DNA of 63,605 nucleotides, the filler included, from Stramenopiles sp. TOSAG23-6 (taxonomy: Eukaryota): NCBI GenBank assembly GCA_900128565.1. It is 11 parts of 11 records of this genome, joined end to end, with 100 filler letters (N's around TTAATTAATTAA, not from the genome) between each part and the next. Parts side by side here need not be neighbours in the genome. Positions count along the whole stretch, not along the records: positions 1 to 7,466 come from LT636562.1; 10 more parts are not named here. One strand, written 5' to 3'. A program made the translations under genes and the position numbers. Below are positions 1 to 56,719 of this stretch, one piece after another. Positions within the stretch are counted from its first letter, which is position 1. Each line of letters starts with the position of its first letter. Under the pieces are notes generated by a model that saw only the letters and a list, made by a program, of their open reading frames with translations, was not told the DNA's origin and did not search any database.

Positions 1-412
1 TTGTAAAGATGCAAAAGATGGGCTTGCCAGAAGGTGCAATTCGTGGTAAAATGCGTATGGAAGGTATTTCTGATGCAGAGGCCGATGCGTTTTTCTCTGG
101 TGGTTCTCTTGCTCCGAAATCTGAAGCTGCATCTCCCCCACTAAATACGCTGCCTAAATATGCAAAATTTGTAAAGATGCAAAAGATGGGCTTGCCAGAA
201 GGTGCAATTCGTGGTAAAATGCGTATGGAAGGTATTTCTGATGCAGAGGCCGATGCGTTTTTCTCTGGTGGTTCTCTTGCTCCGAAATCTGAAGCTGCAT
301 CTCCCCCACTAAATACGCTGCCTAAATATGCAAAATTTGTAAAGATGCAAAAGATGGGCTTGCCAGAAGGTGCAATTCGTGGTAAAATGCGCATGGAAGG
401 TATTTCTGATGC
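1..412 (+). repeat. 168-bp (56 aa) coding tandem repeat, about 2.5 copies
   Basis: Near-identical units with ATG at 9, 177 and 345. Confidence 0.95.
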
Positions 413-2009
413 TGAAATGAATGCATTTTTTGCTGGTACTTCGCTTCCAAGTAAGAAGATTACAAAACCTGTAAAACCGAAGAAGAAAAAGAAGAAAAAA
501 CCTCGCATGTTTCGAACCTTTTTTTGGAATAAATTAGAATCTTTTGAAAAGAAAAATACTATTTGGAATGACTGTGGAACAAATGAGAATGCAAGCAGTT
601 ATCAAATTTTACTACCAGGTAACCCGTCGCGACAAAGGCTTGAGCTTGCATTTGGTACTGGAAAAGTTCTTAATGCTCGTCGTAAGAAAAAAAATGATTC
701 TGAAAAGAAGAAAAGCATAGTTGCGATTGAGGGAAAGAGTGGAGCATCTTTATCAAGCGCACCAGTCGCTCCTGCAAATGTAATCGATTCAAAGCGAGTT
801 TACACAGTTGGTATTGCTATCTCAAGATTAGGGGCACCAGAGAAACTTCGTGAAACAATTGAAACTTTAGATGAGAGTTCTCTCAATCTAGCAGTAATAG
901 AAAAGCTACTTTTACAAAAGTATATACCTAATAAGGAGGAATGTAATGCATTATTATCATATCAAAAGAGTGGTGGTAATATATTAGGATTGAATTCTGT
1001 TGAACGTTTTATGTTAGAAATGGCACAAATACCGCGATTACACCAACGATTACGTTGTATAGTTACTCGACATGGTTTTCACCCACGTGTTGCTAAAGTG
1101 AAGGCTGATGCCAGAGCTATTTCTACCGCTTGTATTCAACTTATGGAATCCAAAGAGCTTCAACATGTGCTTTCAATAATTTTATCAACTGGAAACACAC
1201 TAAATGAAGGCACATCTCAAGGAAATGCAAAAGGTTTTAAGATTTCATCACTGAAGCTTCTTCCTAATGCAAAGGCAGTTTCAGCGTTACAAGGAAAGAA
1301 AACTACTCTGTTGCACTACATTGCCGCTGAAATGGATTACAGCACTATGGGTTTTACTGATCTTACTAAAGTTTGGCCATCTGTATTAACCACAGTTACC
1401 ATCAGTTTTCAGAAAATCCGAAGTGACTCTTTACTTGCAGTCAGTGATTTTAGACTTGTCGAGAACGAGTTGAATCATGCCATTAGTGAACAAGAAAAAA
1501 TTGCCAAATCAGGTTTTAAAAATGCAGGCATCGCTAAAAGTGCCGCTGCATTTGTGAAAGCATTTGCGACATTTGTGGATGAAGCTCGTATATCTTTACA
1601 AGATTCACAGAAAGCAACAGCACAAGGTATGAATGATTTTAATTCAATGTTAAAGTGGTTTGGTGAAAATCCTGCAAAGGTAACTGCAGATGATCGCGCT
1701 CAATTTATACCTGATTTACTAGACTTTGCTGCAAACTTGAATAAAGCTCACGATGAAAATTTGGCATTGGCTGAAAATGCTGATAATATTTTAGATGATA
1801 TTGAAATATCAAAACAAAGTAATAAAGAAAATAGTAGTAGAAGCATTAATAATTTGAATAGATCAAGTAAAAAGAAAATTGGTAGTAGAATTAGTCATAC
1901 TAGAAGAGTTACAACTGGATCCTTGACGAAAGGTAAAATTAAAAGCATTCGAGAACAAGTTTTAGATGAACCTCCAAAGGCAAAACGTAAAGGTTGGTTT
2001 AGAAGGTGA
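1..2009 (+). CDS. Formin (FH2 domain), 5'-partial, with N-terminal KMQKMG repeats
   Basis: FH2 hallmarks FFWNKL, IDSKR, ILSTGNTLN...GNAKGFKISSL, TTLLHY; intronless ORF. Confidence 0.9.
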   Translation, partial: VKMQKMGLPEGAIRGKMRMEGISDAEADAFFSGGSLAPKSEAASPPLNTLPKYAKFVKMQKMGLPEGAIRGKMRMEGISDAEADAFFSGGSLAPKSEAASPPLNTLPKYAKFVKMQKMGLPEGAIRGKMRMEGISDAEMNAFFAGTSLPSKKITKPVKPKKKKKKKPRMFRTFFWNKLESFEKKNTIWNDCGTNENASSYQILLPGNPSRQRLELAFGTGKVLNARRKKKNDSEKKKSIVAIEGKSGASLSSAPVAPANVIDSKRVYTVGIAISRLGAPEKLRETIETLDESSLNLAVIEKLLLQKYIPNKEECNALLSYQKSGGNILGLNSVERFMLEMAQIPRLHQRLRCIVTRHGFHPRVAKVKADARAISTACIQLMESKELQHVLSIILSTGNTLNEGTSQGNAKGFKISSLKLLPNAKAVSALQGKKTTLLHYIAAEMDYSTMGFTDLTKVWPSVLTTVTISFQKIRSDSLLAVSDFRLVENELNHAISEQEKIAKSGFKNAGIAKSAAAFVKAFATFVDEARISLQDSQKATAQGMNDFNSMLKWFGENPAKVTADDRAQFIPDLLDFAANLNKAHDENLALAENADNILDDIEISKQSNKENSSRSINNLNRSSKKKIGSRISHTRRVTTGSLTKGKIKSIREQVLDEPPKAKRKGWFRR

Positions 2010-2248
2010 TTTATATATATATATACAGATAAAATAAAGATTCATGTAAACTTGTACATTTAGTTTTTCGAATGGTTTTTCTTTAAGCATTTTTGTTCAT
2101 TTAGTTTTTATTTTCATTTATGATAATAAATCTAATAATTCGTTACGAGGAAGTTAATCATTTTGAAAATGAAGATTCCTTGTATTTAGATCCTTTGTAA
2201 GAGGAAAACATCCAAATATATATTCTGTGATTTTAATATGCTTATAAA

Positions 2249-3795
2249 TCATAACTCTTGTTGTTGACGACTACGTGATTTGGGTATCGATTCCAAGTGT
2301 TTGTATGATTCAGTTTTCATAAAAGTTTTCAAATCACTTAGTAGTGTTATATACGGCTTGTGAAAATGTGTGATTCCAGATACTACGCCGCTTTCAGGAT
2401 CCGGAGTACTAGTCACTTGATGCCACCAAATTGCTGGAATATATAGAATATCACCTTCATGTACTTCGCAATTGACAATGCGCGCATTTGAAAATTTAGG
2501 ATATTTCTTAAGATCGGGATTTTCAATATTTACTGGACTAAATGGAGTAAGATTTTTTTCATCGAAAAGAATTTCGTAGAATCGCCCTTCATCATTCATA
2601 TATTTTAGAAAAATATTTCAAAAAAACAAATTAAAATTTGTTAGGTACAAAATTTCGTACTAAAAAAAAAATCGAAATTGAAAAAAGATAAAACATTCAT
2701 GACGTCATTTCCAAGAATATCTTTTTCAAATTCATAAAATCTGTATTGGCTACGAATACTTGAATGTTCATTCGAGAAATAAACTTCTTCATTTTGAGTT
2801 GGGTGAATCAAATTGAAAACTTTTGTACCAGATATAACCACATGAAAATTTTCATAAGCATCATGGTGCAAAGGAGCTTTCACAGGTTGTTCACTAGTCC
2901 ATAATAGCTGATTCTGAAGTAAAAGTTGAGGAGATATCATAGTAGTAATTGCTGGCATTATATCTTCCATTACCTCACCCCATAGAGAAAGTGGATGCTT
3001 TTGTAAATAAACACTCATCTTACGACGTCCTTTGTCGTCAAATTTCTTTGCAATATCGGATAATCGCAAGTAATCTGAAAACGTAATCTCGTTTTCAGCA
3101 GGTCGGTCCATAACGATTTCTTGAGTCTCGAGATGTTTTGCAACCTCATATTCTCCCAAAACATCACCTGGTTTAATTGAAACGATGTATGTCCGCAGAA
3201 GCTTGTGTCCGATTTTTTGGTTTAAATAGGTTTTGTTTTTCCACAGATATTGTGCTTTCCAATCTTTCACTGCACCTGTAATAATAACTGGTTTGCTCTT
3301 CTGAACATACTCCTTGAAAAAGCGATCTTTATTTTCTATAAATGTAGTACTATCTACACGTTCACATTTGGTGTATTTTTTGGACGGCAAGGAGCCAGTA
3401 ATATCTACCAAGTCATCGATGGCAATTGGTTTTTTTTTTGGAAGACTTTGTAGCCAGAGATACTGTAAAACAAGGTTGTATTCATTCAAAGAGCACACAC
3501 CGGGAATTGGTGAATGTGTGAGCAGAGGGGTACTGGCTGTACGATTACACACTTGGTCAGATATTTGATGAGCACTCAGTGATTTGACGTCAATTTCAGC
3601 CACATACCTATCAACTAGTGCTTTCACTTTTGTATTATTCTTGTGCAAAGGATGTAACGCGTGAGGTGGAAAATTTGAGTATTTTTTATCAACTTTGAAA
3701 CGGCGGTTTACAGCATCTTGAAACGAACAAATCGCTCTTCCTACCAATGACAGGAAAATATAGAGAAAAATCACAACGACCGTTGCCAATTTCAT
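2249..3795 (-). CDS. JmjC/cupin-like 2OG-Fe(II) oxygenase with signal peptide, 2 exons
   Basis: KPVIITGA, LHHDAYENFH, EGDILYIPAIWWHQV motifs split over two ORFs joined across intron 2598-2698. Confidence 0.85.
2598..2698 (-). other. Motif-family intron ending in AT (donor GAATGT, or GTTTTA if slid 4 nt)
   Basis: GTACGAAATTTTGTACCTAAC core; removal gives in-frame DV-M-NDE; flanking ATGAATG direct repeat makes the exact register ambiguous. Confidence 0.8.
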
Positions 3796-3991
3796 GTTCT
3801 ATTTGATTTTTATTCGAAGAGGTTGTAAGTAAATTAATATAGGGTACCTCTCGAGTTGTGACTCAAAACTTTGACAGGACAGCTTCGTTTTTTTGTTACC
3901 AGGTACCAGTACTATCGGATCTCGTCTCGAATTTCCGTAAATTTTTGAAAGACAACAAGTGCTAAAATAGAATGAAAAAGAGTTATGTGGC

Positions 3992-4768
3992 ATGTCAAAT
4001 CTAAACCAGATACGTATACTTGTTGTTGGAGATAGTGGGGTAGGTAAAACTTGTCTTATACATCGAATTTGTCATAAGAAAGCACTGGAGAATCCCGGTT
4101 GGACGGTTGGATTTGAAGTAAATGTGCTCTGTCGACAATACAACATGGGAGACGCTGAATCAGGTTCTTGCTACAGCTTATCGAGTGAGTCTTCTTCACT
4201 TATGGAGAATGAGTCTCTACAGTACGTAGAATTCATTGATATATCTGGACATGAAAAGTATAAGCTTTCTCGTTCATTTATTTACAAAGATGTAGACGGA
4301 ATAATATTCTGCTATGACACTTCGAACTCAAAGTCCTTTTACAACATAAAACGCTGGTCCGAAGAAATTTCGAAAGAGACAAGTGGATATTCTGAAAAAA
4401 ATGTACAAAGAAGAAATAGTCATAATCATAACAACTGGAGGGGAATTGATACTGGGATTACACATCGTAAGGTACATTCTGAAAAAACTTTAGACAGTAA
4501 AAAATATAGTTACAAATTACCAAGTTGCCCCATAATAGTTATTGGTAATAAATTGGATTTGCTATCTCCAGCAGCACGTGAGGGTTTTAAACATCCACAT
4601 TTACCAGCTGGAGGACTTGGATTTAACAACAGTAATAATCTTGAATTCTGTGTTTGTAGTTCCTTGGATCCGTTGATAATGTCCCTTCGAGTTCGCGAGA
4701 AACTGCGTGAAACTCTTGACTCGTTTTATTTGCGTGTTCAAACATCAAAACAAAATAATTTATTGTAG
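3992..4768 (+). CDS. RABL3: Rab-like protein 3 family small GTPase
   Basis: GDSGVGKT P-loop, WTVG, DISG, IGNKLD; no C-terminal prenylation motif. Confidence 0.75.
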   Translation: MSNLNQIRILVVGDSGVGKTCLIHRICHKKALENPGWTVGFEVNVLCRQYNMGDAESGSCYSLSSESSSLMENESLQYVEFIDISGHEKYKLSRSFIYKDVDGIIFCYDTSNSKSFYNIKRWSEEISKETSGYSEKNVQRRNSHNHNNWRGIDTGITHRKVHSEKTLDSKKYSYKLPSCPIIVIGNKLDLLSPAAREGFKHPHLPAGGLGFNNSNNLEFCVCSSLDPLIMSLRVREKLRETLDSFYLRVQTSKQNNLL

Positions 4769-5066
4769 AAAAATTTAATAAAATCCAACTTATTATGCTC
4801 AATGTTTATGCAATAGTATGTGAACAACCACCTTTTTAAGTTTTTGAAAAAAACAATTCCATTGTAATAAAATGCAACTTCCAAGTGAATAATAAAATTT
4901 TCAGAAAATTATTACTATTAATTTTTCAAAGGTGAATTTCTCATCAAATTTGCTACCACCATTTATAAAATTATAAAAAGATTAAAATAAACACTGTACA
5001 ATATTATTGGCGTTCACCTTTTGATAGTAATAAAAGGGAATAGCTTGATTCATATAATCATCAAAA

Positions 5067-6195
5067 ATGCTTCCATTAATTGCAATTGGAAGGCGATCAT
5101 TTTCATCATCAGTTACATCAAAAATGATTCGATTAATTGCAATTGGAAGGCGATCATTTTCATCATCAGTTACAGCCAGTAGCAACAACGTTACGCGATA
5201 TGCCACTTCAAATGGAGATGTTGTATGGGGAACTGAAAAAAGAGGAAGTACAGTTGTCCCTGTTGCCAATCCATTGTATCCTTCAGAGTATCCAGAGTCT
5301 TTATCACCTGTCACGGTGACTTCTACGCTTGCACCACTCCCTGTTGATCCTCCACCGGCCATTATAGCTGTTGGACTAAATTATAGAAAACACGCTGATG
5401 AAGTCGGATTGCCAGTTCCTCGAAACCCAATTCTTTTCTACAAAAACCCTTCCAGTGTTTGTGGTCCAGAAGACGAAATTTTAATACCAAAAGTCGCGTC
5501 TAGAAATCCAAATGAGACAGATTCTGAGGTTGAGTTAGCCGTATTTATAGGAAAGAGGTGTAAAGATGTCTCAGTAGAAAATGCTCTTGAATATGTTTTG
5601 GGGTATACCGTAGCTAATGACGTAGGTTGCAGGCGGTGGCAAGGTAAGAAAGGTATTTTATGTTTATTTGAAGAATTTGTGAGTTGTTTTCATTATTGCT
5701 ATCTATGTTGATTTGCAAAAGCTTTGATATATTGTATACATTATATGTGGTGGGCAATGGTGTGTAATTTAATCAAAAAATGATGTCATATAACAATATA
5801 TTTTTCATACTATCGCTTTTATTCAATTGCATCACATTTTTACTATAATGCGCATATTACATAGGTCGAAGTCATTTGATACCTTCACTCCATTGGGTCC
5901 TTCTCTGCTTCCTGCCACTGAACTAATCAATCCTCAAAAACTAAAACTATCAGCTGAAGTGAATGAAGAAATATTACAATCTTCCTCGACAGAGGACATG
6001 ATATTCTCTGTTGCTGAGCTAATCTCATATATATCACAGGATACAACTCTACTTCCAGGCACCATTATTTTAACTGGTACACCTGAAGGAGTGGGTTATA
6101 TTAGACAACCACCGAAGTTTTTACTTCCTGGAGATAGGGTAACTTGCAATATAGAAAACATTGGCAAAATTTCTAATACTGTGAGAGATGCATAA
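5067..6195 (+). CDS. Fumarylacetoacetate hydrolase family protein, 3 exons (5067-5652, 5747-5763, 5863-6195)
   Basis: VGLNYRKHA, DSEVEL, ANDV, KSFDTFTPLGP, LTGTPEGVG; the 17-nt microexon restores WQGKKGGGQWCRSKSFD. Confidence 0.9.
5653..5746 (+). other. GT-AT intron without the family motif
   Basis: AAG|GTATTT...TTATAT|GTGGTGGG; restores GGGQW. Confidence 0.75.
5764..5862 (+). other. GT-AT intron without the family motif
   Basis: TGT|GTAATT...TTACAT|AGGTCGAAG; the AG 2 nt downstream is out of frame. Confidence 0.8.
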
Positions 6196-6233
6196 ATACA
6201 CCACATAATAAAATAATAACGTTATAGTTCCCT

Positions 6234-6782
6234 TTATATTTCTAATTCTAAGCCGTCTTTTTTCATTTTCTCAAGTTTTTGTTTTATGGCTCTCATTTCG
6301 CTAATGACTATATTTGCAGCGTCGACGTCACTAATAACGCGCTTTGGGGCTCTTCTCTTAACTTGAACCTTCCGTTTTTTAAACGAACGATCTGAAACAT
6401 CTTTTAGGGGTTCAGATTCGTTTCTTGCTTCTTCAAATGCGACTACAATTCGACGACCATTCAGTTTCTTCCCATTCATTTTTTTCTGGGCAGTTTCAGC
6501 CTCTTCTCGTTTACTATATGTTACATAAGCCGTTCCAAGAGGTTTCCCTGCATCCTCTCCTTTTATTTTCCACATGAAACGGAAGTTTACCATTCTACCG
6601 AAACGTTTGAGTACTGTCGCAAGGGTATTTTCGGTGACTCGGTAATCTATGTTGTAAATACAGAGCTGACAGTTTATGTCGAAAAGCTTTCGGCGCTGAT
6701 TCTGTGTTGCTTCTGCAACCTTAAGGTATCGACTATCCACAAACGCTGCATGAATACTGGTTGGTTCATGACGACGAGCCAT
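6234..6782 (-). CDS. RRM protein, RBM18-like
   Basis: Single RRM (LCIYNID...GKPLGTAYVTY) and C-terminal MRAIKQKLEKM helix. Confidence 0.7.
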   Translation of the reverse strand: MARRHEPTSIHAAFVDSRYLKVAEATQNQRRKLFDINCQLCIYNIDYRVTENTLATVLKRFGRMVNFRFMWKIKGEDAGKPLGTAYVTYSKREEAETAQKKMNGKKLNGRRIVVAFEEARNESEPLKDVSDRSFKKRKVQVKRRAPKRVISDVDAANIVISEMRAIKQKLEKMKKDGLELEI

Positions 6783-7112
6783 GTTCTTCTAACTCAATAG
6801 ATTGGAGAGTATACACAGCTATTCAATGCAGTATGTATAAGAGCATATACTATGTAAAAACGGCAACCTTTTTCTTCGACTATTTTCGCTAGTACCTTTC
6901 GGACGAGAGACCCGAAGCTTCTCTTCTTCTTCACAAAAAAAATCAAATCCTCTGAGCATGTTTGTGATTTTCAGTTTCGTATACAAATTTCGTACCTAAG
7001 TAAGTTTACGTAGCCAGTAGCAAAAAATCGCAGGAACTCGTTGTAGGCCTACTGGTATAGTACTTTAAGTGACGCATTTGGATACATTAAGGATATTGGC
7101 AATTTATTTGCC

Positions 7113-7466
7113 ATGACCTCACAAACTACAGAAATAAAGTGGAATGATTTACGTGTAGATAATAGAACTAGGAATTTTTTTGAGGAGACTATAGCACAAG
7201 CTGTTGTTTTAGCAAAGCTAGCCGTTGCTGACATTGCAAATTCAACCCGTTCACTCCTGATTCTACTTTTCAGTACACTTTTCTTTGGTTTTATAGTAGT
7301 ACTAAATGGGAAAATACATACTCGTGATGATATTAATGATGATCAACGTGACATGCAGAATGCAATGTTTGGTGCGGAGGTTGCAATGAAGAGTGTAGTA
7401 TCAGGGATGCTTTTATCTTTAATGATGGTCTTTTTTGACCTTTATTGGTTAGACTTTTACATTCAG
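7113..7466 (+). CDS. Hypothetical membrane protein, 3'-partial
   Basis: ORF with two hydrophobic segments running into the contig end. Confidence 0.5.
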
Positions 7467-7566
7467 NNNNNNNNNNNNNNNNNNNNNNNNNNNNNNNNNN
7501 NNNNNNNNNNTTAATTAATTAANNNNNNNNNNNNNNNNNNNNNNNNNNNNNNNNNNNNNNNNNNNN
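7467..7566. other. Artificial contig linker (N-TTAATTAATTAA-N); also at 15010, 22544, 30065, 37578, 45089, 52584, 60070, 61250, 62428
   Basis: Identical 100-nt spacer with stops in all six frames; contig sizes decrease monotonically. Confidence 0.98.
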
Positions 7567-14923: not shown

Positions 14924-15211
14924 ATGAATTTGGAAAAATATTTAAAAAAAAATCTAAAAAAATTGTTAGGTACAAAATTTTTTTTTTCGTAAAAAAAAAA
15001 AAAAAAAAANNNNNNNNNNNNNNNNNNNNNNNNNNNNNNNNNNNNNNNNNNNNTTAATTAATTAANNNNNNNNNNNNNNNNNNNNNNNNNNNNNNNNNNN
15101 NNNNNNNNNTTTTGAAAAAAAATTAAAAAAAAAAAAAAAAAAATTGTTAGGTACAAAATTTCGTATGAAAAAAAAAATCGATTTTTTTGTTATAAAAAAA
15201 ATAAAACATAC

Positions 15212-16344
15212 GGGTCCTGCATTTCCTAAATGATTTTGTCTCGATGCAGCAGATAATTCACAATCTGGTGTCTTTCCATTTTTAGTTTCGGTAAATGCAG
15301 TCCAAGTACCTTGGCAAGTTTCCTGTGTAATACCTGCGTCATTACCACCGTTGACACATCGATACATGTATTATGAAAAATATTTTTCAAAAATTTGATT
15401 TTTTTGTTAGATACGAAATTTCCTACGAAATAAAAATTGATTAGAATTAAAAAAAAAAACATACTTTGTTTTTACGTTTCCACTTTCAGACTGATAATAA
15501 TCACACCAATCTGTGTTTGATGTTAGAATAGCGACATCTCTCCATGGTGTCTGTAACCAATATGGGTAATAATCACGTTCTTCGGGGCATTCAAATCCAC
15601 TTCGATTTCCATTCGGATTTTGTCTCGTGAATCTCGCGTCATTTCCGTTAAGATCTTGGTCAGCGACGTAAAGCCCTTTATTTCTTTCAGTATTTTGACA
15701 GGTTTGATACCATGCCAAATTTTCATTCATACCATACTCTGTATCAGTCGCTGTATTTGCACTAATTGTATTTGTGCCATCGTTGTTGTTTCTTTGGAAT
15801 TGTGCCTCTTGATACAGAGGCGCGTTATTATTTCCCTGATTATTTACGTTTTGCAAATTCCCAGATGGATAGCCGTCCCGCAATCCTGGCATTGTATCTT
15901 CACAAGCGTACTGAATTACAAAGTTGCAGTTTGTGGATGGGTTATCTCCGCATGCATGCTGGTTCGTCCACTCCAAGTTCAGAAGAGAACCTTCGTAATA
16001 CTCTGCAGGGTCTGGGGCATTCTGAAGTTCACGATTTCCGCGCCAAGGATATCCTCCTTTAGCCTGTTTAGTAAAGATGATAAAAAATTGCAAGATGTTA
16101 AGTACGTTGGCGTGAAATATTCAATGTATACGTGAGACCATGTGATATATCGTAAAAACATAGTGAAATATGTAGAAATTTGAAGTACATTATTCTGGGA
16201 ATCGAATAGACGGTTGTCATTATTTCGGTTATTGTTTCGTTCACGATTGCGGTTATTTGATCCAGGCGGATTGTGCATATAAACATCTGCTTGACACTTT
16301 ACAACAAGCAAAACGCATACGTAAAATTGTAGAGTAGTCGTCAT
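15212..16344 (-). CDS. Secreted DD3-3-like protein, 3'-partial; exons 16344-16189, 16063-15465, 15365-15212
   Basis: Signal peptide, ADVYMHNPPGSNNR, RLFDSQNN-AKGGY, ECPEERDYYPYW motifs. Confidence 0.75.
15366..15464 (-). other. GT-AT intron, motif family (GTATCTAAC variant)
   Basis: AA|GTATGT...AATACAT|G; KTK-YRCVN. Confidence 0.8.
16064..16188 (-). other. Canonical GT-AG intron without the family motif
   Basis: AAT|GTACTT...TTACTAAACAG|GCT; restores QNN-AKGGY. Confidence 0.85.
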
Positions 16345-22543: not shown

Positions 22544-22696
22544 NNNNNNNNNNNNNNNNNNNNNNNNNNNNNNNNNNNNNNNNNNNNTTAATTAATTAAN
22601 NNNNNNNNNNNNNNNNNNNNNNNNNNNNNNNNNNNNNNNNNNNTACGAAATTTTGTACCTAACGATTTTTTTTTGAAATATTTTTCCAAAATACAT

Positions 22697-26100: not shown

Positions 26101-28653
26101 ACTTTTTAAGTTGCCGAGGCATTAACCATCGTCCCGTCTCATACATGTTCAACAGAGTTTCCATATCCCATCCTTTTGGTATATGTTTTCTCCATAAAGG
26201 TCCATGTGTGATATAATCCAGAACAAGAAGTTGCTCAGCTGTTTTTGGTAGTCCATCGAGAACAAAACCCAAAGGAAATTCTGGAACTTTCCCTGATAGA
26301 TCTTCACATTTCTTTTCACTTTTGGTTGAAATATCGTTGGCTATAGTAATAGCGAGCATGATTTTTTGAGCAGCAGCTTTTGCAATTAATATATTAGCAT
26401 AGATTGAATTATTTTGTTCTGTTATGGGATTCTCTTGTGAAGGATCTTGTGCCAACTCGTAAATTTTATGCAATAACATAGAATACTCTTCTTGAGGAGA
26501 TGGAACTGGAATAGACGGGGGTGTCTCTTCAATTAACCAAAGACCTCGATCAAATGGTTTTAGGCTTTCCCATGCAGATCTTTTTTTATGCCATTCATTT
26601 GCTTGTGTTTCGGTCGTCTTGCAAATTTCATCCCACTTAGTTTGCCAGGTGGAATATGTCGATTCATTAGCCTGAGCTTCTTTAACAATATCTTCTGGTG
26701 TTATTATAGCTAATCTGTGTTTAAGCGCAAGTGTATTTGCAAGTGTTGTTTTTCCACTGAGAGGAGGACCTACGAGTGAAATAACACATGGAGATCTTGG
26801 TGTCTGGAGCATTTTGTTTGTAAGAGGCCAACTGCAGCGCAATGCCCCTTCAAGTTCTCGAAAGACTTTACTTACATTTGGTAGTTCCGAGTTTTCACGA
26901 TCCGTGGTGCTTTCTTTTAGAGCCCATTTTCCATGACAATCAAGTAATTCTTGGACGTCTACATCATCAGAAGCATTTGCAACCATGTCTGTTGTACCTT
27001 TTTCGAGTAAAGGTGCTCCAAGATCATCCAACTGTAATGGTCGATCAGCAACAAAATCGGCTTTATATTCACGCCAGAAGGAAGGTGGCATTTTCTCTCG
27101 ATTATTATTTTCTCGATAATCAACCACCTTGAGTGCGAGATCAGTTAATGTACCCACAATAGCTGTACAAATATCATTATGTTGCTCGTGTCTCTGTTTA
27201 AGTCTTAAACGGTCAATTTCCGCCACTCGCTCAAAATTAGCTATTCGACGTGGTTCATCATCCACTCGCTTCTTCTCATATAATATAGAATCTTTTCCCA
27301 TTTGTATTTGAAATTCATCAAGTCTATTATTTCGACATTCTTCAGCGTGCTGCTTTGCTCTTTCTATAGATTTTGCTTTGATTCGACTATACGCCCAACG
27401 TTGTTGTGATTCCTCGCGTTCTGCTTTCGCTTCACGTGCAATACGAAGCAAGCGATCATGTATTTTGGAAAAATATTTCAAAAAAAATATAGTTAGGTAC
27501 AAAATTCCGTACGAAAAAAAAATCGAATTTGAAAAAAAGTAAAACATACACTACTCATTCGTTTTTCTTCCGCCAGTTTCTGTTCAACGAGTTGCTCCGC
27601 TTGTACACGTCTCTGTCGCGTCTGTTTCTCTCTTCGAGACACTTCATCAATTTGTCGTGATTGATGCAAAGCTTCTATATATTTTGAAGAGTGTTTTGCA
27701 AATTTCGCAGTTGATGATTTTGTCATTGACTCTAAACGTTTCATATGTTCTAGGGGAGTTCCTTGATTCGTTTTTGCAAGAGTATTCAAATCTTTGATCC
27801 CCTCGGTTGAATTACCTCTAAATCCAAGTCGTTTTAATTGTTTCTCGAAATTATCAACACCCATTTTGAGTTCTTGTTCACAGTGATGGCGTTTAATTAT
27901 GTCTTTACGTCGAGATTTTTCAACCATACTAAGTTCAAAACGAAGTTCTTTCCGTTCACGATTTCGTTTTATTATTTGAGTTTCTTTCCACCGTTTTTGG
28001 GCATTTTCTTCAAATTCTTTTTTTTCTTTACGATGAAGTAAATTACGTTTGATACGCTCTTTTTTCTTTTGTATAATAATTTCAGCCTCTTTTTCACGAA
28101 TTAACTTGTCCTCTGCGTCTATTTCATTCTGACGGTTTCGTTCAGTATCAAAAAATTGTTTGACATGAACTTTTTCTCTCATTTGTTTCTTATTCAAATG
28201 ATATGTAGTTGAGTAAAATCTTTCATCGTCTGTCATTGGAACAGTTTTTGGTTTCTCCTCCTCATTATTTTCAATCTTTTGTGACGACTTCAAATCTTTG
28301 ACGTTTTCGTTCACACCAATCATCCGTCTCAAAAGGCCATCCGATTGTATTTTGATTTCTGCTAATAACTTTGCAGCACAACCTCGTTTTTGAATCATTA
28401 TACTCTGTCGTTTCTTCTGAGATAGATTTATTGCAAGATTTTTAAAGCCAAGCTCACAAACTTTAAAATTATTTATCTTTGCCCCAGCTGTGTTTTTTCG
28501 AATGAGTTTACTCAAGGTAATAGTTTGACCTAACTTTTGAAGTAGTTCACCAAACAAATATCCATTTGCAAACTGCTCATCTATATCTGTTGCAACTATT
28601 CTAACAGAAAGCTGAATGTCTTTATTCAGCCATTTAGTCAATAGGTCAGACAT
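23186..28653 (-). CDS. SPEF2: SPEF2/CPC1-like flagellar central-pair protein, 2 exons
   Basis: N-terminal CH-like FANGYLFGELL...KINNF, coiled coil, adenylate-kinase-like GPPLSGKT...GFVLDGLP, C-terminal EF-hand-like region. Confidence 0.75.
27458..27549 (-). other. GT-AT intron, motif family
   Basis: AGT|GTATGTTTT...AAAATACAT|GAT; joins 386-aa and 1453-aa ORFs in phase 0. Confidence 0.85.
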
Positions 28654-30004: not shown

Positions 30005-30241
30005 ATGGATTGTGAAAAAATATTTTAGAAAAAAAATCGTTAGGTACAAAATTTCGTACGAAAANNNNNNNNNNNNNNNNNNNNNNNNNNNNNNNNNNNN
30101 NNNNNNNNTTAATTAATTAANNNNNNNNNNNNNNNNNNNNNNNNNNNNNNNNNNNNNNNNNNNNTTTGTACGTAACGATTTTTTTATCTAACATTTTTTT
30201 TACACTAAAAAAAAGTTATATACTTTTCACATTATATACAT

Positions 30242-32923: not shown

Positions 32924-34532
32924 ATGGTCAGACCCAATGCAACAAGACGAGGTCGTGGGAATTACACTGCTCGTTCCCAGTATGATTCTGCTGATGGTAG
33001 AAAGAGAGCAATGAATAAATATTTTCAGCAGCAGGTTACCGACAAATTGAATAAACGTTTGGTACTACAGTATCGTGTCCCGCAAAGAAAGGCACTCAAA
33101 CTAGCACAGAATTATGTAAGTAATCTTTCAGATAAAGAATTGCACAATGCGCACAAAAATGGTGTAAATTTAAAAGAACTTATTGAAAACTCTAAAAAGA
33201 AGAAAGAACTGGCTAATAAAGAGGCTCTTGATCAGCAAATGCGACAGCAAGCGGAACAGCAAGCCGAACAGAATCGTCGCACTCCTACTCCAAAGTTAAA
33301 CTCTAGTGGTGATGATAGAACCAACCGTGCAAAGGAAAAAATGACATTTGGTGGAGCTCGAATTGGTGGGAAAGCGCCTACGGGTAAAAATGTATGGACA
33401 GCAATTGCTGAATACAACGTCAAAGTTGCTGCAGAAAAAACGAAAGCGGAGAGATTGGAGGTTGTAAAAGGTCAAAAAAAATTTAATCAAATTTTGGCAC
33501 AACAAGTCACTGCAAAACGACGCATAAAGGAACGAGAAAAACGCCAGCGTATTCGTTCTCGTAAGCTTGTGGATGATGATTACATTACTCACGAAAAGAC
33601 CGAGAGAGCAAAAAAGGAAGTTCTTATTCAGAGAGCAATGGAGGAAAAAAAAAAAGCGTGATGCCCAAATGGTTGCAAAACGTCAACGAGAGAAGGAGTG
33701 GATTGAAGAGGAGGAAGAATATGGTAAAGAATTCATTTCGAAATGTCTTCGCGAATTACAAGAGGAAAAGGATCGCATGCAGGCTGAAAAGGAACGTAAG
33801 GCACTCAAGAATGTTGAACAAAGAAGGGAACTTGATCAGCAATTAAAAGATCGCATTAGGCAAAAAGAAATTCTCGCCGAAGAAGATCGCAAACTTGCCG
33901 CTGACTATGTCAAAATGGTAAATGCTAAGGAGGAGGCTCGACGAGAAGAATATCGTCAACGTAAGGCGCGTATTCAAGCAAAATGTGATGCAATGGGAGA
34001 TGTTTATGATAACGTAGCCGCACAAGAAGCTCAAGAAGCTGCAAGTACACAATCTTCTTATGAGAAACACTTAAAAGCACGAGCAGCTGATTTACAGGCT
34101 CGTAAAGATCGAGCTAAACAACGAACTGTTGAACAAATGGATTGGTTAGATAAAATGATCCGAGAAAAAAATGAAAAGAAATTACAATTATACCAAGAAG
34201 ATATGAGAATGGCTCGAAAAATGCAAATGGATGCTAATGCTTTTTCGGAAGAACAAAGACAAGAAAAAGTCCAATATAAAAAGTTACAGCGAGAATTTAA
34301 AAACACATTGGATGAACAAATGGCATACAAACGTGCACAACCCACACTTGATGATGATTCAGATGTTTTATTACTGAATAAATCTCTTTTGAAACAAGTC
34401 CAAAGCGCAGGAGTTGTAATGGGCGATACAATTGAAACGCTTCCAACAAACTGCTCTAGAGCAATAAAAATTCGTGGTGAAGGAAAAACACGCAGAGAAA
34501 AAAAAGCGGCGAATAAACTGCCCGTAATGTAA
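32924..34532 (+). CDS. Long coiled-coil protein (trichohyalin/TPH-like); one frameshift in an A-run near 33650
   Basis: Two charged coiled-coil ORFs that join at a homopolymer. Confidence 0.6.
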
Positions 34533-34742: not shown

Positions 34743-37512
34743 TCAAGTTTTGTATTTTATCTGCATTCCATCAATAATTTCATCCTCTGCTTCAGAATTC
34801 AACTTTCTAGCCTGCGCAACCAGTGAAGTGACTGCCGTACTACTCTTTTTTGACTTTTCTGGTATAAAAAAAGACTTTGGACGAGGTTTAATGGTTGGTG
34901 GTTGACGTTTTTTTGGACTTCGATTCTCAAATCCATTGGGTAGCATCATTCTTAACATGTCAATGTATATTGGGTCAAGTAAATCTTTACCTGTACGAAG
35001 TAGTACACCGAGTGATGGTCCGAGATGATCCCAACCAATATCACTAAGACCTGTACTTGTGAGAGCTTGGCAGTTATTCAGCAACGCAATGGCTACTTCT
35101 TCTAACTGTTCAGGATGCCATAAAGTTTTTGCATTTGCTTCAGCATCGACACGTTGGCAAATCTTCGCTACAAGACTTGCGATAAATTCATCTTTCATCT
35201 GCTCAGAACACGTTGGAATATATCGACCTAAATTTCGTAGTACATCAATGACAACTTTATGTGATGGGTCTTGTGTCAGTCGTAAAAGTTCCTCTTTTAG
35301 CTTTGGTTTCATAGGCTTATAAGGTTCATTCGAATCGTATGACATTGTCAAAACAATTACAGCCTTGACGCTGCTTTTACGGACTTCGGTATCTTTATCT
35401 CTACAAAGGATGTGTAATGATGGCATGACTTTTGTCTCTTGATCTTTATCGGAAACCACGGGTGCAACAACCGCAAGCAATAAAGTAACTTTTACACGTA
35501 CAGCTGTAGATGGATGTGCTGCAATATCACTTAATACAGATAATAATTGTTGTGCTGTAGCACTATCACTAGACAAATCCATAAACACCTTTTCTACTAC
35601 AGGGTATTGACGAGAACGCCAACCATTATTTTCTAAAGCAACACCCACAAGAGTATCCGCAATAAATCGTTTGATATAAACATGTGGTAACTCAACTAGA
35701 ACAGCACGTGTATACACTGGGAGAATTCTTTCTAATAAAAGATCTTTTTCGCGAATTTCAATTTCACCGCCCGATTGATTGTGAACTCGATTTGGTCCCA
35801 TCAAACTGGTATCACTGAGTACAGCTGCTTTACGTGCAGCCGTTGATGCAGCTTGCCACCATTCACAGCGCAATGTTTCATTAGGAATAGAATTTTCATT
35901 TCGGCCTAATATGGAAAGAAATGCGGCGGATGGTTTCCTCTTCTCTTGACCCTCCAACATTCCCATTGTTGCAAGAAATAAAGGACGTACAACGTTAAGT
36001 GTAAAAGATTCTCCAAAACTATGACAAAAACTACGAAACACTTTCACAAAACATAATTGATGTCTCTTAGAATCACCAGACTCAGATGTATTTTGTGAAA
36101 ACATATTTCAAAAAAAAATGATTAGGTACAAAATTTTCATAGTAAAAACAAAAGTGAGATGNATAATGAAAACGTATAGACAACATAAATACAATAACAA
36201 ATTAGGAAGCACAAGTTGGCAAATGCTACGAAATTCTGGCCATTCCAATGCATCCAAAGTTCCAATATTTTCAATATTCGATGCAATCATGTTTTTGGTG
36301 TCTAATCGGAATACAACATCAACTGCCGATATTTCACTATTATAGCCTAATTTCTTAGCTGCGCGAAATATCCAGCCTGGTGCATTATCTAAAGAAAATA
36401 TTTTCTTTTTAAGAATCGGAGCAGCGGTTGTCAATGCATATAATAAGTGGTCAAGCTTTAATGTTTTTTTTTTTAATTTATACGCAACTGTTGTGCTTAA
36501 AATATAGTCATCTTCCGATTTACTTTCAGTCAACAAATCTATGCAAGAAGACAAGTTCACTTCGGTCTTTGAATCCATTGTATTTCTAATTTGAGTCAGT
36601 AAAACTTCAACAATACCTTCATGATTAAAAATAGTACCATAAGAATAGAAAAATATTTCAAAAAAAAAAAACTAAAATTTGTTAGGTACAAAAATTTTTT
36701 ACCAAAAAAAAAAATTCAATTTTAAATTGAAAAACAAATAAAACATACATTCAATTTTAATTTATTTAGAAAATAAAACATACATTTACATTCTGATATT
36801 CTATCAGAAGAGGAAGAATATTTTCAATGGCTATCTGGGGTATTTCTTCTACATCTGAGAGAAGTGTCAGAAATAATTCACCAAGTATTTTAGTAAAATG
36901 CATTTTACAGTACTTTTGAATATTCTTATTACTGTCTAAAACTTCTAAGTCTATTTTGTGAACTAGTGTAGATTTGTGTAATACTGTTTTTAGTAATGAA
37001 CTTAGTGCTTCCAATGCAGCTTTTCGAACTTGTAATGATTTTTCAATCCTATGTGAGCACATAGTCACTAAACTTGGTACTAACTCACTAAATACAACAA
37101 TTGGATCACATGAAGGAATAATCGCAAGCGCAAGTGATGCAGCCTGAATTCTACGCTCTCGAAAGCGTTCCTTACATTGTTGGCTTATCGCGACGATAAT
37201 TTCCTCAGAGGTCCGTTTTCTACCAATTACTCCTGATAGATTTGATATTCTTGTACATAACTCATTGCGTTCATACTCATTCGGTCGTGGGATCAAGGAA
37301 ATTAAAGATTTGATTAAACCTAATGAAACTTTTTCTCCTTGAGGCATAAGAGCAATACAACGAACTAGAAGTGGGGCCAGTGAAGATCTTTCGCTGATGA
37401 CCATTCCTGATACTAGACTAGGCAATTGTTGAGATAAGAAAAGAATTAATTCTGTTTCTCTACTTTGTGTAAATTTCGTGTATTCTTCTGACGTATCTCT
37501 ACAATTCAGTTT
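34743..37512 (-). CDS. HEAT-repeat protein, RELCH/KIAA1468-like, 5'-partial, at least 3 exons
   Basis: LAPLLV...LISLIPRPNEYER...IGRKRTSEEII...ERR resembles RELCH from recall; downstream HEAT repeats. Confidence 0.65.
36088..36177 (-). other. Motif-family intron best read as AT-AC
   Basis: CT|ATACGTTTT...GTACCTAAT...AAAATAC|A; flanking ORFs share a frame, so the length must be 3n. Confidence 0.6.
36639..36783 (-). other. GT-AT intron, motif family, with a duplicated internal donor at 36748
   Basis: AAT|GTATGTTTT...TTCTTAT|GGT; phase 0 restores frame. Confidence 0.75.
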
Positions 37513-37677
37513 ACGTATTGTTAAAAAATATTTCAAAAAAAAATCGTTAGGTACGAAATTTCGTATGAAAAAAAAATNNNNNNNNNNNNNNNNNNNNNNN
37601 NNNNNNNNNNNNNNNNNNNNNTTAATTAATTAANNNNNNNNNNNNNNNNNNNNNNNNNNNNNNNNNNNNNNNNNNNN

Positions 37678-37856: not shown

Positions 37857-38023
37857 ATAGTAATGGTTATTGTAATTTCGACTTTTCTGAAATATTTTCG
37901 ACTTCCGACTTCGACTTGACTTCAACGGTCGACAGTTATTTGGCCGAATTTCATCTCAACACCGACACCGAACGCCGAACTGAACATCTACAATTCTGGT
38001 TACAATTAGCTTCATAGATTAGA

Positions 38024-39438
38024 ATGGTTCTTAGAGGTTCGGTAACGAAGCCTGATGTTGGTGTAAAGGAAGTTTTACGGAAGTCCAGTGATGCAATTAT
38101 CGAACGTAAGGCTAAGGAAGCTGCTTTTCATATAGAGTCGGAAGCGTTATGGACCCGCTTAGAAAAAACAGCGGAGAATCAACAGGAATTAACACAGGCG
38201 GAACTTTATTCCTTAATTCATCGCCTACATTCACGAATCCAGTTGTTGGAGGATGAAAGAATTGCCGCTGAAAAGTATGCGGAAGAACAATATGCCGATG
38301 TCACCCGTGTTTTCAAGCAGCTACTCTGCGGCGGTCTCGCCGGTTGTGTAGCTCGAAGTTGTGTAGCACCAATTGATAGAACGAAGATTCTTTTACAGAC
38401 TCAAGCATTGACATTTGCTAACGAGGGTAAAGTTAGTGGACCAAAGTATCGGGGAATATTCCATACATGGCGTGTTATAATCAAGGAGGAAGGATTCAAA
38501 AAGTTATGGCGTGGAAACGGAGTTAATTGCATACGTGTAGCTCCGTATGCCGCTACTCAATTTGCTTCCTATGACTTTTACAAATCTTTAATATCTAGTA
38601 ATGAAAATCTTACAATCCCCAAACGTTTATTATGTGGTGCATTAGCTGGTGCAACTGCTACAACAATAACACACCCTCTAGATGTTATTCGGCTTAGATT
38701 AGCAGTATGTTTTATTCTTTTTCAAATTCGAATTTTTTTTTCGTACGAAATTTTGTACCTAACGAATTTTTTTTTAAATATTTTTCCAAAAAACATGTTA
38801 CACCAAGTCTTGATGGTTTTCAGGATGCATTACGTCACGTAGTCAAGGAAAATGGATTTCGTTCCTTATACAAAGGTTATGTACCCACATTACTTTCATT
38901 GTCTCCATTTATAGCGATTAATTTCTCCGCGTTTGATATTTTCAAAAGGATTGCCTATCCTGAAGGTCCATCTGGAGGTTGGTCAGCCCATGTACGTTTT
39001 CAACATTCATTTTTTTTTCAATTTTTTTTAGTACGAAAATTTGTACCTAACGAATTTTTTTTCGTACAAAAATATATATTTTTTTCATTTTTTTTTTCAT
39101 ACGAAATTTTGTACCTAACGATTTTTGTACTACAAACATTTTTTTTCACAAAACATCCTTTTCTTACTTTAACTTTGGGTGGTTGTGCAGGTCTTGTTGC
39201 ACAAAGCTGTTGCTATCCACTAGATACTGTCCGACGACGAATGCAATTACCTGGTACGCATTATAAATCTGTGTGCGATGCTTTTGCTACTATACCAAAG
39301 AAAGAAGGGATAAGAGGTTTATACAAGGGTATGCTGCCAAATGCGGTAAAGATTGTACCTAATAATGGAATTCGTTTCTTGGCATATCAGTTTTTTAAAG
39401 ATATTTTTGGTGCAGAAAAGAAAAAATATGAAAAATAG
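38024..39438 (+). CDS. Mitochondrial carrier (SLC25) protein, 3 exons
   Basis: Three Px[DE]xx[KR] motifs: PIDRTK, PLDVIR, PLDTVR. Confidence 0.92.
38705..38796 (+). other. GT-AT intron, motif family
   Basis: GCA|GTATGTTTT...AAAAACAT|GTT; RLRLA-VTPSL. Confidence 0.85.
38992..39156 (+). other. GT-AT intron, 165 nt, in-frame and stop-free, with two copies of the motif
   Basis: CAT|GTACGTTTT...AAAACAT|CCT; removes a poly-Phe insert from carrier repeat 3. Confidence 0.8.
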
Positions 39439-41812: not shown

Positions 41813-43256
41813 ATGCCTCGTGGAGTGAAAGCGGTATCCGCCACCAAAAGTAAACAAAAGGCAACAAAGAAGACTCGGAAAAAAACTGCGGCTGATGTAA
41901 TAACAAAAAAAAAAGCACGAAGAAAAAAAACAAACAAACCAAAGATTTCTTCTTCCCTTTCCCACAAAACGCTGGTAGACGATTTGAAGCACGTTCGAGA
42001 TTTTGCTATTACGCTTAGACATAAAGCAAAGTTTTATTTACCACCCACACTCCCAGAACTTGGTATCTTTGACGCAAAAGAAGTTATTCAAAAATCTCCA
42101 TCAAAAATGCTCGATGAGATTGATTGCCTCATATCAAGTTTACTCTCAACGGTACTTGGTGGAGGAAGTTTACATTTACGTATACCAAGTCGAAGTGCAT
42201 CCAACCAAGTATACGTCAAAGAATTGCATCGGATTGTTTTAAAAAGTAAATTTCTCGTTCGTAATTTTGACTCCGTCGCAGGTTGTCGAAAAATGGCCAT
42301 TATGATACGTGTTCTAGAACTGATGTATCAAGTACTCACTAAAGGTATTCACATTACAAAGCGTGATCTTTTCTATACTGATGTAAAACTATTCAAAAAG
42401 CAAGAAGAATCTGATGGTGTTCTTGATGACATTGCTTGTGTATTGGGCTCTACTAGAACGTATGTTTTATTTTTTTTTGAATTTCGAATTTATTTTTTTT
42501 CGTACGAAATTTTGTACCTAACAATTTTTTTTTTTTTTTTTTTGAAATATTTTTTCACAATACATGTGTCTCGGAGTCGTTGCATCCGAGAAGGGCGTTG
42601 TTGTTGGTAGAATTAGTTTCAAAGAAGCAGGCGATGTCATTGACTGTACTAAAATGGGCGTATCAGGGAAAGCTGTACCTGCATATATAGATCGACTCAC
42701 TGATTTAAAATCAGATGCAGAGTTTGTACTTTTGATTGAGAAAGATGCTGCGTATATGCGGTTAGCTGAGGATCGTTTTTATAATAAATACCCATGTATT
42801 CTTATTACCGCAAAAGGACAACCGGATGTCGCTACTCGTCTATTTCTAAGAAAAATACACGATGAATTACATTTACCAATATTAGGCTTATTTGATGCAG
42901 ATCCTTATGGTCTGAAAATTCTCTCTGTGTATGGTGCTGGTTCTCGAAGTATGAGTTATGATAGTGCTAGTCTTGCTACACCAGGGATAAAGTGGTTAGG
43001 TGTTAGACCGTCAGACTTGAATAAATATAACATTCCAGAGCAATGCAGACTTCCAATGACAGATGCAGATATTAAAGCTGGAAAAGATATGTTAGAAGAT
43101 CCATTAATATCATCCAATCCGGCTTGGCATAAAGAATTAAAACTAATGGTCAAATCAAAGATGAAGGCAGAAATTCAGGCTTTATCAGCGTTTGGCTTTC
43201 AATATTTGACTGAAGAATATTTACCACGTAAAATTCGAGAGGGTGATTGGATATGA
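41813..43256 (+). CDS. TOP6A: DNA topoisomerase VI subunit A (SPO11-3 type), 2 exons
   Basis: [37 protein letters not shown]. Confidence 0.92.
42460..42565 (+). other. GT-AT intron, motif family
   Basis: AC|GTATGTTTT...CAATACAT|G; gives [15 protein letters not shown], colinear with the family pattern GCTRSSLxVVASEKG. Confidence 0.9.
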
Positions 43257-43336: not shown

Positions 43337-45029
43337 CTATGAACTACTGCTTTCACTATTGGGCTCCTCACTTGTATGACTTGAATTATTACTCTCCTCA
43401 TCATCAGCAGCTACCATTTGTTTCTTAGATGCAAACTTGTCAACATTTGCAACATCTTTACCAGCTGCACAATCTTTGATCCATTGAATTTGTTCCAACT
43501 CCCATTGCTCCTCTTTCAGTAATACTTTCTCTGCCATTCTAACACGTTTTTGGTGCTCTTCCGGTATATATGGCCACCATGCAGGGACAGCATTACACTT
43601 TTGTCTCCACTCGCGCAGAAGTGCAAGCTCCTTTATCCTCTCTTTCATTTCTGTTGGGTGGGGTTTTTCTATTTTTTCGCCGTATACTATCATAAATATT
43701 GTTCCACGCCTTGGTGTTGTTGGGCGTTCCTCTGGTAACGTTGGCATACTCAAAGGATTTCCTTTCCAGTTGTACTTTTTCGTAAACCAGTCTCTCAACT
43801 CAGGCGATTTCGACATAAAATCAAGGGAGTTGCGAAGCAAAATCAGCCAATTTCCATTACCCCACATAAATGGAGTTTTTTCGGCTTCTTCGCAAATTTT
43901 AGGAGCCACAAAGCGACATTGTTCTTCATCCTGATATCCAGCACGTCGCCATGCAACCTTTACAAGTTGGTTACGCCATGTCACAAGTGTTTCAATAGCA
44001 TCAAGTGTATATGTATTTTAGAAAAATATTTCAAATTTGTTTTTGTTAGGTACAAAATTTCGTACGAAAAACAAATTCATACAAAAAAAAAATAAAACAT
44101 CCATCCTCGAAGTGTACAAAGATATTTCGTTGTTTTCTTAAATGCTCTTTGTTTTTCAGTGTTCACAATTGCTGTGGTGTATATAGTTGAAGCATTTTTT
44201 ATCATTTCTTGTAATTCTTGTAGTGCCTCTTCGTGTTTCATTATTTTTTCTAAAAGCGATGATTCTAATTCTTTGATTTGATTCGACTCTTTTTGTCGAA
44301 TATTTAATTCTTCTTTATCAAAATCTTTTGTATTTGTCTCATTGGTTGGTTCGTATGTAGAATTAATGCAAGCTTCTGCAATTTTCATTCCAGCTTTCGA
44401 CCATTTTTTATCGTTTATTTTTGATATTTTTGATATTTTTTTTTTATTACTTTTATGAATCTTTCTACGAATATCATGTTTACCACTTAATTGTTGATGT
44501 TTTTTTATTCTATTAGTTTTTTTTTGTTTTGAATGGTCATTTGAATGCTTCTTGTTTGCATCCCACACTGTTTCATTACCATTTACGTTGATATCTACCC
44601 AAGGCTCTCTTGGGGGAGGCTGTATATACTTTTTTACTCTCTTTTTTTCTTTCAATGATGAAATTGGTTTTGACCAACGTTTTTCAAGAATATTTAATTT
44701 GTTGATTTCGTGAACAAAATGTCTCACAAATTCTTTTGGTGTTCGCATTTCACACTCCTCGAATTTATTCTCAAACTTCAATCCAAGAGATCTTCCATCA
44801 ACATAGATTATGAAAAAATATTTCAAAAAAAACTCGTTAGGTACAAAATTTTGTACGAAAAAAAAATAAATTCGAAATTAAAATGAAAACGTACATTCAC
44901 CCTAATAACTTTTGCAGGGTGCCAAATTTCTCCAACAATAGCTGGTGTAAACATTGATGGGGATCTAAATCTACTTTGCACGCGTTGGCCAACTTTGTAT
45001 CGCTTAGGTCTTCTTTTAATTGCCCTTGC
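43337..45029 (-). CDS. Hypothetical protein with a Tudor-like segment, 5'-partial, at least 3 exons
   Basis: Three ORFs joined in frame across family introns; YKVGQRVQSRF...WHPAKVIRVN-VDG. Confidence 0.6.
44011..44102 (-). other. Motif-family intron with apparent GG-AT ends
   Basis: GGAT|GGATGTTTT...AAAATACAT|AT; RG-Y-TLDAIE. Confidence 0.65.
44803..44894 (-). other. GT-AT intron, motif family
   Basis: AAT|GTACGTTTT...AATCTAT|GTT. Confidence 0.8.
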
Positions 45030-45286
45030 ATACGTTTTGGAAAAATATTTCAAAAAAAAAATCGTTAGGTACAAAATTTCGTACGAAANNNNNNNNNNNN
45101 NNNNNNNNNNNNNNNNNNNNNNNNNNNNNNNNTTAATTAATTAANNNNNNNNNNNNNNNNNNNNNNNNNNNNNNNNNNNNNNNNNNNNATTTTTTTTTCT
45201 AGGAATTTTCCATGTATTTTTTTTTTTTTTGTTTTTTTTTTTGTTTAGGTATAAAAATTTGTAAATAAATAAATAAGAAAACATAC

Positions 45287-52520: not shown

Positions 52521-52683
52521 TCAAACATCTTTTTAATTATTATATATATATATATAAATGAGTTGCTTGTAAAAAGATACCCANNNNNNNNNNNNNNNNN
52601 NNNNNNNNNNNNNNNNNNNNNNNNNNNTTAATTAATTAANNNNNNNNNNNNNNNNNNNNNNNNNNNNNNNNNNNNNNNNNNNN

Positions 52684-53863: not shown

Positions 53864-54097
53864 CAACGTGCTTAAACAAAGCTCCAACCTAAAAAAATTA
53901 AGATTATAAGAAAAAAATAAAAGATTAAATGCGTAGTTGTGTAGAACTACGCGATAAGAATGATAAAGATGTCTTCGATTATGCGCATCGGCATAATCTG
54001 ACTACCGTACCGGCCGGGACCGGGAACGTATTCAACAGTTATTTATATTAGCGATTATTTAAATTTTATTGACTTTCAAATTTGTTTTTTTTATAAT

Positions 54098-56596: not shown

Positions 56597-56719
56597 TCTT
56601 TGGAACATGAAAAGAAGAAAATCGAAACAATTGTTTTTGACTTTTTATATAAAAGAGTGTTATCCATTACTAAAAATAATTCAAAGTGCAAGTTTATTTC
56701 ATAATCTACAGAATTCACT

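Follow-up and report, generated by a model that had tools for sequence, protein, structure and literature searches.

The AG at the 3' end of introns is among the most constant signals of eukaryotic genes, and it is read twice, early by U2AF and again by the catalytic core at the second step. To our knowledge, only few lineages break this rule at scale; euglenozoans display large-scale non-GT-AG splicing. The closest known cases to the GT-AT use described here are the larvacean Fritillaria borealis and the parasitic dinoflagellate Amoebophrya. In Fritillaria, the non-canonical introns are most commonly AG-AC and AG-AT, and many of them are transposon-derived (PMC11282704); the U2-type spliceosome excises them, and their non-AG 3' ends are recognised by U2AF paralogues that have diverged (PMC11282704, PMC13326754). 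In Amoebophrya, the majority of introns are non-GT-AG, introner elements are present, and annotation needed transcripts (PMC7789003). The introners of Aureococcus and Micromonas are described as transposons that carry in one of the two splice sites, the other being made from the target-site duplication (PMC11282704). U12-type introns tolerate non-AG 3' ends, AT-AC and others (mentioned in PMC13326754). A literature search confined to article text found no report of a stramenopile with GT-AT as its main intron type. In their available text, the MAST single-cell genome paper mentions introns twice and splice sites never (PMC5778133), and the Incisomonas paper leaves introns unmentioned (PMC12614181).

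The stretch of DNA analysed here (the window, 63.6 kb) probably holds, judging from its sequence, real spliceosome-type introns of a MAST-like marine stramenopile whose splicing accepts a YAT 3' end without a repeat motif. As in Fritillaria, AT-ending introns occur at genome scale, repeated introns carry terminal inverted and short flanking direct repeats (PMC11282704), and standard gene finders fail. Unlike that chordate, whose 5' ends are mostly AG, the host is a protist stramenopile with GT 5' ends, a yeast-like GTATGT and a strong CTAAC box in the repeat intron family; the two introns of a FAH-family gene, on which we focus, have no transposon features, and the system is known from genomic sequence. 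Amoebophrya is likewise a marine protist with repeated introns bearing inverted and direct repeats. In contrast to its variable borders, which show no dominant terminal dinucleotide (PMC7789003), GT-AT dominates here and is an allowed reading in 15 of 17 curated introns. With the introners of Aureococcus and Micromonas the family shares terminal inverted repeats and a 2-nt repeat of the exon end, found in 11 of 15 introns. Those introners are GT-AG, whereas the family here is mostly GT-AT and the FAH introns are not detectably family members. The 3' end need not be AG, as in U12-type introns, but the branch box of the family is separated from the 3' end by 32-54 nt rather than 10-15 nt, and the FAH introns are without U12 signals.

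Table 1. Coordinates of the FAH-family gene, the carrier gene, exemplary family introns and spacers in the window
Feature	Position	Strand	Description
FAH-family gene	5067-6195	+	FAHD-like hydrolase, Pfam PF01557; in the first piece of the window, 1-7466
Exon 1, FAH gene	5067-5652	+	195 codons + 1 base; ends ...RRWQGKK + g (caa ggt aag aaa g)
Intron 1, FAH gene	5653-5746	+	94 nt; GTATTTTA...TACATTATAT; GTATTT...TATAT
Microexon, FAH gene	5747-5763	+	17 nt, phase 1; with carried-in g = GGGQWC
Intron 2, FAH gene	5764-5862	+	99 nt; GTAATTTA...CATATTACAT; GTAATT...TTACAT
AG adjoining AT acceptor of intron 2	5863-5864	+	conserved reading: first 2 bases of Arg codon
Exon 3, FAH gene	5863-6195	+	AGG TCG AAG; RSKSFDTF... 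to TAA stop
Intron 1, public GT-AG model P0011	5644-5721	+	GTAAGA...AAAAG; overlaps GKK codons
Mitochondrial carrier gene	38018-39438	+	two family introns, GT-AT
Family copy, example	27458-27549	-	
Family copy, example	38705-38796	+	
Family copy, example	42460-42565	+	
Spacers	7467-7566, 15010-15109, 22544-22643, 30065-30164, 37578-37677		
Spacers	45089-45188, 52584-52683, 60070-60169, 61250-61349, 62428-62527		

The window is gene-dense and AT-rich (GC 0.25-0.39). It is no single chromosomal segment but consists of eleven pieces, each a separate contig, joined by N44-TTAATTAATTAA-N44 spacers, eight of them ~7.4 kb long and the last three shorter. Clearly eukaryotic genes encode a formin FH2 domain, a Ras-like GTPase, a mitochondrial carrier, Spo11/Top6A, IFT43, Erv1 and an F-box protein, and a search with Rfam detected no snRNA in the window. 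Two genes have public proteins of 99-100% identity, labelled GSMAST32... (EukProt), and seven seawater or plankton runs contain near-identical fragments, each accounting for at most 0.20 of the sampled words. The protein label and the seawater RNA fragments suggest an uncultured, MAST-like marine stramenopile as the host.

The FAH-family gene displays a full-length FAA_hydrolase domain interrupted by two short AT-rich inserts. Pfam places PF01557 on exon 1 (profile 2-100, E 4e-28) and on exon 3 (profile 109-214, E 9e-36), and the 8 profile positions left uncovered between them correspond to KK plus the six microexon residues. Exon 1, which is 99% identical to the public protein P0011, stays in frame through a donor-like GGTAAG up to GKK and the single g at 5652. 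The closest homologues read WQGKKGG[GS]QW[CS]RSKS[FY]DTF, so that the pieces GKK, GGGQWC and R of our model are the same residues as in these proteins (for the microexon peptide, e.g., P0002); the G.QW motif occurs in 101 of 129 FAH homologues. Both introns have a GC content of 0.22, whereas the microexon reaches 0.59 and the exons on either side 0.42-0.43. When 5653-5862 was randomised, 5 out of 150,000 mononucleotide shuffles and 8 out of 150,000 Markov-1 simulations contained the pattern G[GSNA]QW[CSTVI], and because chance occurrence is so rare, the microexon is taken as real coding sequence. At the start of the gene (5067-5180, +), a 57-nt tandem duplication yields two near-identical N-terminal presequences, each with an ATG; the public model P0011 begins at the second of these, and RNA-library contigs span 5088-5174 within the duplication.

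A quantitative comparison of splice models was obtained by enumerating, within 5560-5920, all stop-free structures that pair GT donors with AG or AT acceptors in one or two introns (n = 5,377), and scoring them with an HMM built from the 116 homologues, out of 129, whose length is 240-362 residues. The model with two GT-AT introns (5652^5747, 5763^5863) ranks first, its protein aligning end to end with the profile at 380.5 bits, and the runner-up (371.6 bits) likewise uses AT at both acceptors. The top model among the 85 stop-free ones restricted to GT-AG reaches 351.2 bits, and P0011 (intron 5644..5721, exon 5722-5761, intron 5762..5864) reaches 345.7 bits. The motif G-x-Q-W...K-x-F-D with an 11-residue spacer after WQ is obtained only with the microexon and both AT acceptors. 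Shifting the cuts without changing the product gives GT-AT, TA-TG or AT-GT for intron 1 and GT-AT or TG-CA for intron 2, GT-AG being absent in both cases. Other structures were tried and rejected: skipping of the microexon shifts the frame and leads to a stop, joining the microexon to the acceptor AG at 5863-5864 breaks the frame and meets a stop 4 codons later, and a ciliate-style TA...TA excision would leave two extra residues relative to the conserved spacer. The earlier note had proposed, from the DNA alone, a 17-nt microexon between two GT-AT introns at these positions, with GGGQWC inside it and an AG 2 nt past the second AT that breaks the frame. Enumeration and homologue alignment bear out each of these points. 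The predicted GT-AT/GT-AT structure is the only one that encodes the conserved RRWQGKK/GGGQWC/RSKSFDTF of the closest homologues, and the inferred exon structure with its non-AG boundaries follows from homology and frame.

AT-ending introns are not confined to this gene. A 93-nt profile built from 12 seed introns gives 31 nhmmer matches at E<1e-3, about one per 2 kb, revealing an abundant intron family ~92 nt long (92-101 nt in 8 of the 12 seeds). Its layout runs from GTATGTTTTAT... through the near-palindrome TTTCGTACGAAATTTTGTACCTAAC, which ends in the CTAAC branch box, and a T-run to GAAATATTTTTCCAAAATACAT at the 3' end. The termini form inverted repeats (GTATgTTTT / AAAATAC); in a family intron, the GUAUG start pairs with the AUAC just before the final AU. 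Where the 3' end is present (23 copies), it reads AT in 20 and AG, GT and AC in one copy each, the AC being a projection slip at a sequence that reads ...ATAC|AT. The 5' ends of 15 copies are GT (13), GG (1) and GA (1). Automatic delimiting, which skipped 13 more motif hits lacking a donor or acceptor match as well as an uncounted set beside N runs, yielded 16 introns; 14 of these join flanking long open frames, and both of the others had donor picks unlike the consensus. Most family introns bypass 1-3 YATs between CTAAC and the 3' end. The repeat of the last two upstream-exon bases at the intron end, which includes AG/AG in the sole AG-ending copy, looks like a target-site duplication supplying the acceptor. 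An AT-AC reading of the family was rejected, being possible in only 8 of the 17 curated introns; at carrier intron 1 it would also encode D in place of the A of the homologues. As a rule the window's introns have AT acceptors, and most of them end in YAT rather than YAG. Several contigs end inside family copies, so the assembly seems to break at this family. Copies beginning with GA, GG or AT (ATACGT) instead of GT are located at 2598-2698 (-), 44011-44102 (-) and ~36086-36164 (-), and from such 5' ends the donor may be relaxed too in this organism.

The mitochondrial carrier gene offers a view of the family boundaries through homology. With both family introns removed as GT-AT, it scores 540.8 bits against a profile of 61 homologues, versus 502.0 bits for the public protein P0131, which reads 11 residues from intron 1 and drops 12 conserved residues at intron 2; the GT-AT model restores both junction motifs. 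Since homology supports this model, the AT boundaries of the two carrier introns are confirmed. Judged against their homologues, P0011 and P0131 appear forced into GT-AG and wrong at the AT introns, and as both are singletons of 90%-identity clusters, that collection contains no protein with the correct splicing. The sole AG-ending family copy interrupts the IFT43 gene, where the Pfam match covers profile positions 10-110 before it and 112-135 after it. At 16064-16188 (-) there is a candidate non-family intron with putative GT...CAG borders, for which no homologue was found; a GTACTTAAC box is located 34 nt upstream. As this intron seems to be CAG-ended, AG acceptors probably coexist with AT. 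A scan of the window for AT-rich, ORF-breaking islands outside the family matches found only few further candidates. When 10 further ORF pairs were enumerated by frame only, every pair allowed hundreds of solutions, which are uninformative without homology, and Pfam found little on the ORFs of those pairs.

Both FAH introns start with GT in a donor consensus weaker than the family GTATGT/GTACGT, and both end in YAT, with the YAG of U2-type introns found in no shift. Intron 1 contains no [CT]TAA[CT] box, and intron 2 has a single one, as far as 89 nt from its 3' end; TACTATAAT is located ~18 nt before the end of intron 2, and 12 earlier YAT triplets of this intron are bypassed. U12-type introns are marked by [AG]TATCCTT at the 5' site and by a TCCTTAAC box that precedes the 3' end by 10-15 nt. 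The FAH introns begin with GTATTTTA and GTAATTTA, contain no [AG]TATCCTT and carry no TCCTTAAC box near either 3' end; the string most similar to this box, gctttgat, differs from it at 2 positions and is located 19 nt before the end.

RNA evidence at the locus comes from four seawater libraries (X1, X2, X4 and X5), which together contribute 6 contigs. Five of them lie in exon 1, with contigs covering 5088-5355, and the libraries give no cover at 5356-5600 or 5913-6250. No spliced joint is found among the 6 contigs. The X2 contig (312 nt, depth ~4, 5601-5912) crosses the region and is colinear with the genome, i.e., unspliced; the library was not poly-A selected, and the contig may represent DNA or pre-mRNA. 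It differs from the window at one position (C>T at 5830), and because it is independent and matches 5601-5912, the AT dinucleotides are not assembly errors. The check suggested in the earlier note, RNA across the two introns, hence confirmed the DNA sequence and yielded no joint.

Three other readings of the FAH locus have to be weighed against splicing at AT. The structure chosen by the public annotation, P0011, would make this a canonically spliced gene, in frame and exclusively GT-AG, in which a 14-residue lineage-specific loop replaces GKKGGGQWCR. Its sites are GTAAGA (5644)...AAAAG (5721), a 40-nt exon (5722-5761) and GTGTAA (5762)...ACATAG (5864), and the reconstructed model 5067-5643 + 5722-5761 + 5865-6195 contains P0011 exactly. 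Among these sites, the donor GTAAGA is good in generic terms, as is the acceptor TAG, and the 85 possible GT-AG-only models demonstrate that an in-frame canonical solution can be drawn here; the acceptor AAG and the donor GTGTAA are poor. We consider this structure very improbable. It scores 35 bits under the GT-AT model and stretches to 15 residues a WQ-K[ST]FD spacer that is 11 residues in the GT-AT model and in 92 of 106 pattern-matching homologues (129 examined). Its 14 residues are unrelated to the conserved peptide, and the intact in-frame GKK, GGGQWC and R codons, left over in an intron or another frame, would be a coincidence of about 3-5 in 100,000. In addition, the same public annotation demonstrably mis-splices the carrier gene. 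Another explanation holds that the inserts are never removed, as in a pseudogene or under constitutive retention, or that they are removed by a non-spliceosomal, structure-guided route of the euglenid kind. The sole RNA-library contig across the site is indeed unspliced, the termini are non-canonical and a branch box is absent. Retention, however, would end the protein 22 codons into intron 1 with the loss of half of the domain, yet both large exons are intact and strongly conserved. The stable end pairing of euglenid-type introns is absent from both FAH introns: they fold worse than their shuffles (z = +2.0 and +1.4; 197 of 200 and 185 of 200 shuffles fold at least as well), and since they fold no better, there is no end-pairing structure of that kind. 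We regard non-removal or euglenid-like removal as scarcely credible.

A more serious concern is that the FAH introns might be old family copies, whose AT ends came with the element or its target-site duplication; they would then be spliced at AT and bring no independent word on the machinery. Their lengths of 94 and 99 nt fit the mode of the family, both have GTA... starts and YAT ends, and intron 2 contains a GTAAT/ATTAC 5-nt inverted repeat just inside the final AT, which resembles the GTATG/ATAC arrangement of the family and is statistically not significant; ORF breaks outside the family are, moreover, rare in the window. On the other hand, nhmmer with the family profile over 5653-5862 returns no match even at E<=10. 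Aligned globally with the family consensus, the two introns reach z = 1.4 and 1.2, dropping to 0.8 and 0.2 with the six terminal bases held fixed, versus 4.6 and 6.5 for two weak family members taken as controls. Neither the CTAAC box nor the palindrome TTTCGTACGAAATTTTGTACCTAAC is present in the FAH introns, in line with what the earlier note had stated about this motif, and the 2-nt direct repeat between upstream exon end and intron end, common in the family, is missing as well. By these measures, descent from the family is rather unlikely.

Splicing at AT is the reading we retain for the FAH gene. It would be a functional gene in which two short AT-rich introns flank the 17-nt microexon, both being cut from the pre-mRNA at their GT...AT boundaries. 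As GT (and the family CTAAC) is conventional, U12 signatures are absent and the FAH introns show no end pairing, the remover would be the major, U2-type spliceosome with an altered 3'-site specificity (YAT >= YAG), one for which U as the final intron base is acceptable or preferred. The 3' site would be picked by context or distance rather than as the first AG, and the family palindrome would not be needed for AT use. By analogy with Fritillaria, diverged U2AF subunits would be the obvious candidate. If the FAH introns are spliced, AT use is independent of the family motif. The proposal in the earlier note that AT use belongs to the machinery and not to one repeat family gains from the lack of a detectable family relation by nhmmer and z score, and its independence would be weakened if introns of 94 and 99 nt were decayed copies after all. 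Its further claim, that first-AG scanning does not operate here, holds insofar as AG is not required, and the first YAT is not the rule either, given those bypassed in intron 2; it goes past the data in that a scanner accepting AT would meet the AT before the AG. The AG at 5863-5864 is no test of scanning because it lies downstream of the AT.

A broader possibility, which we put forward tentatively and as somewhat short of probable, is that GT-AT is the standard intron of this lineage, the 3' dinucleotide having been re-specified from AG to AT whether or not an intron derives from the repeat, with 5' and branch signals still yeast-like. If so, this would be the first eukaryote in which one non-AG acceptor has become the rule, and public gene models of the lineage would be systematically wrong at most introns. 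An exchange of AT for AG with GT and the branch box conventional would amount to a clean natural experiment on 3'-site recognition, with a bearing on the mutual adaptation of the spliceosome and a burst of transposon-born introns. The FAH microexon separates machinery from repeat because its two introns carry no repeat sequence, and it is the window's best evidence that the AT rule needs no repeat. Metabolic inferences for an abundant uncultured grazer group rest on mis-spliced models such as P0011 and P0131.

Relatives of the gene were collected by a metagenome scan with exon 3, in which 80 loci were kept, none above 57% identity over the full length. The gene is continuous across the microexon region in 78 of the 80, and one locus (L045) is partial. 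The remaining locus, L044 (L044:2749-2979), comes from a GC-rich distant eukaryote of 54-57% identity and displays a canonical G|GTGCGT...CGCAG intron, which is of phase 1 like FAH intron 1 and lies 6 nt upstream of its position; there is none at the position of intron 2. Two features of the assembly itself were also recorded. The piece 52684-60069 is a palindrome centred near 56376/56377 with mirrored ORFs, e.g., 54877-54101 (-) and 57876-58652 (+), and is probably an inverted chimera of whole-genome amplification and not biology. At 33640-33660 (+), two overlapping ORFs change frame at an 11-A run, which is likely a homopolymer length error in the assembly and not an intron.
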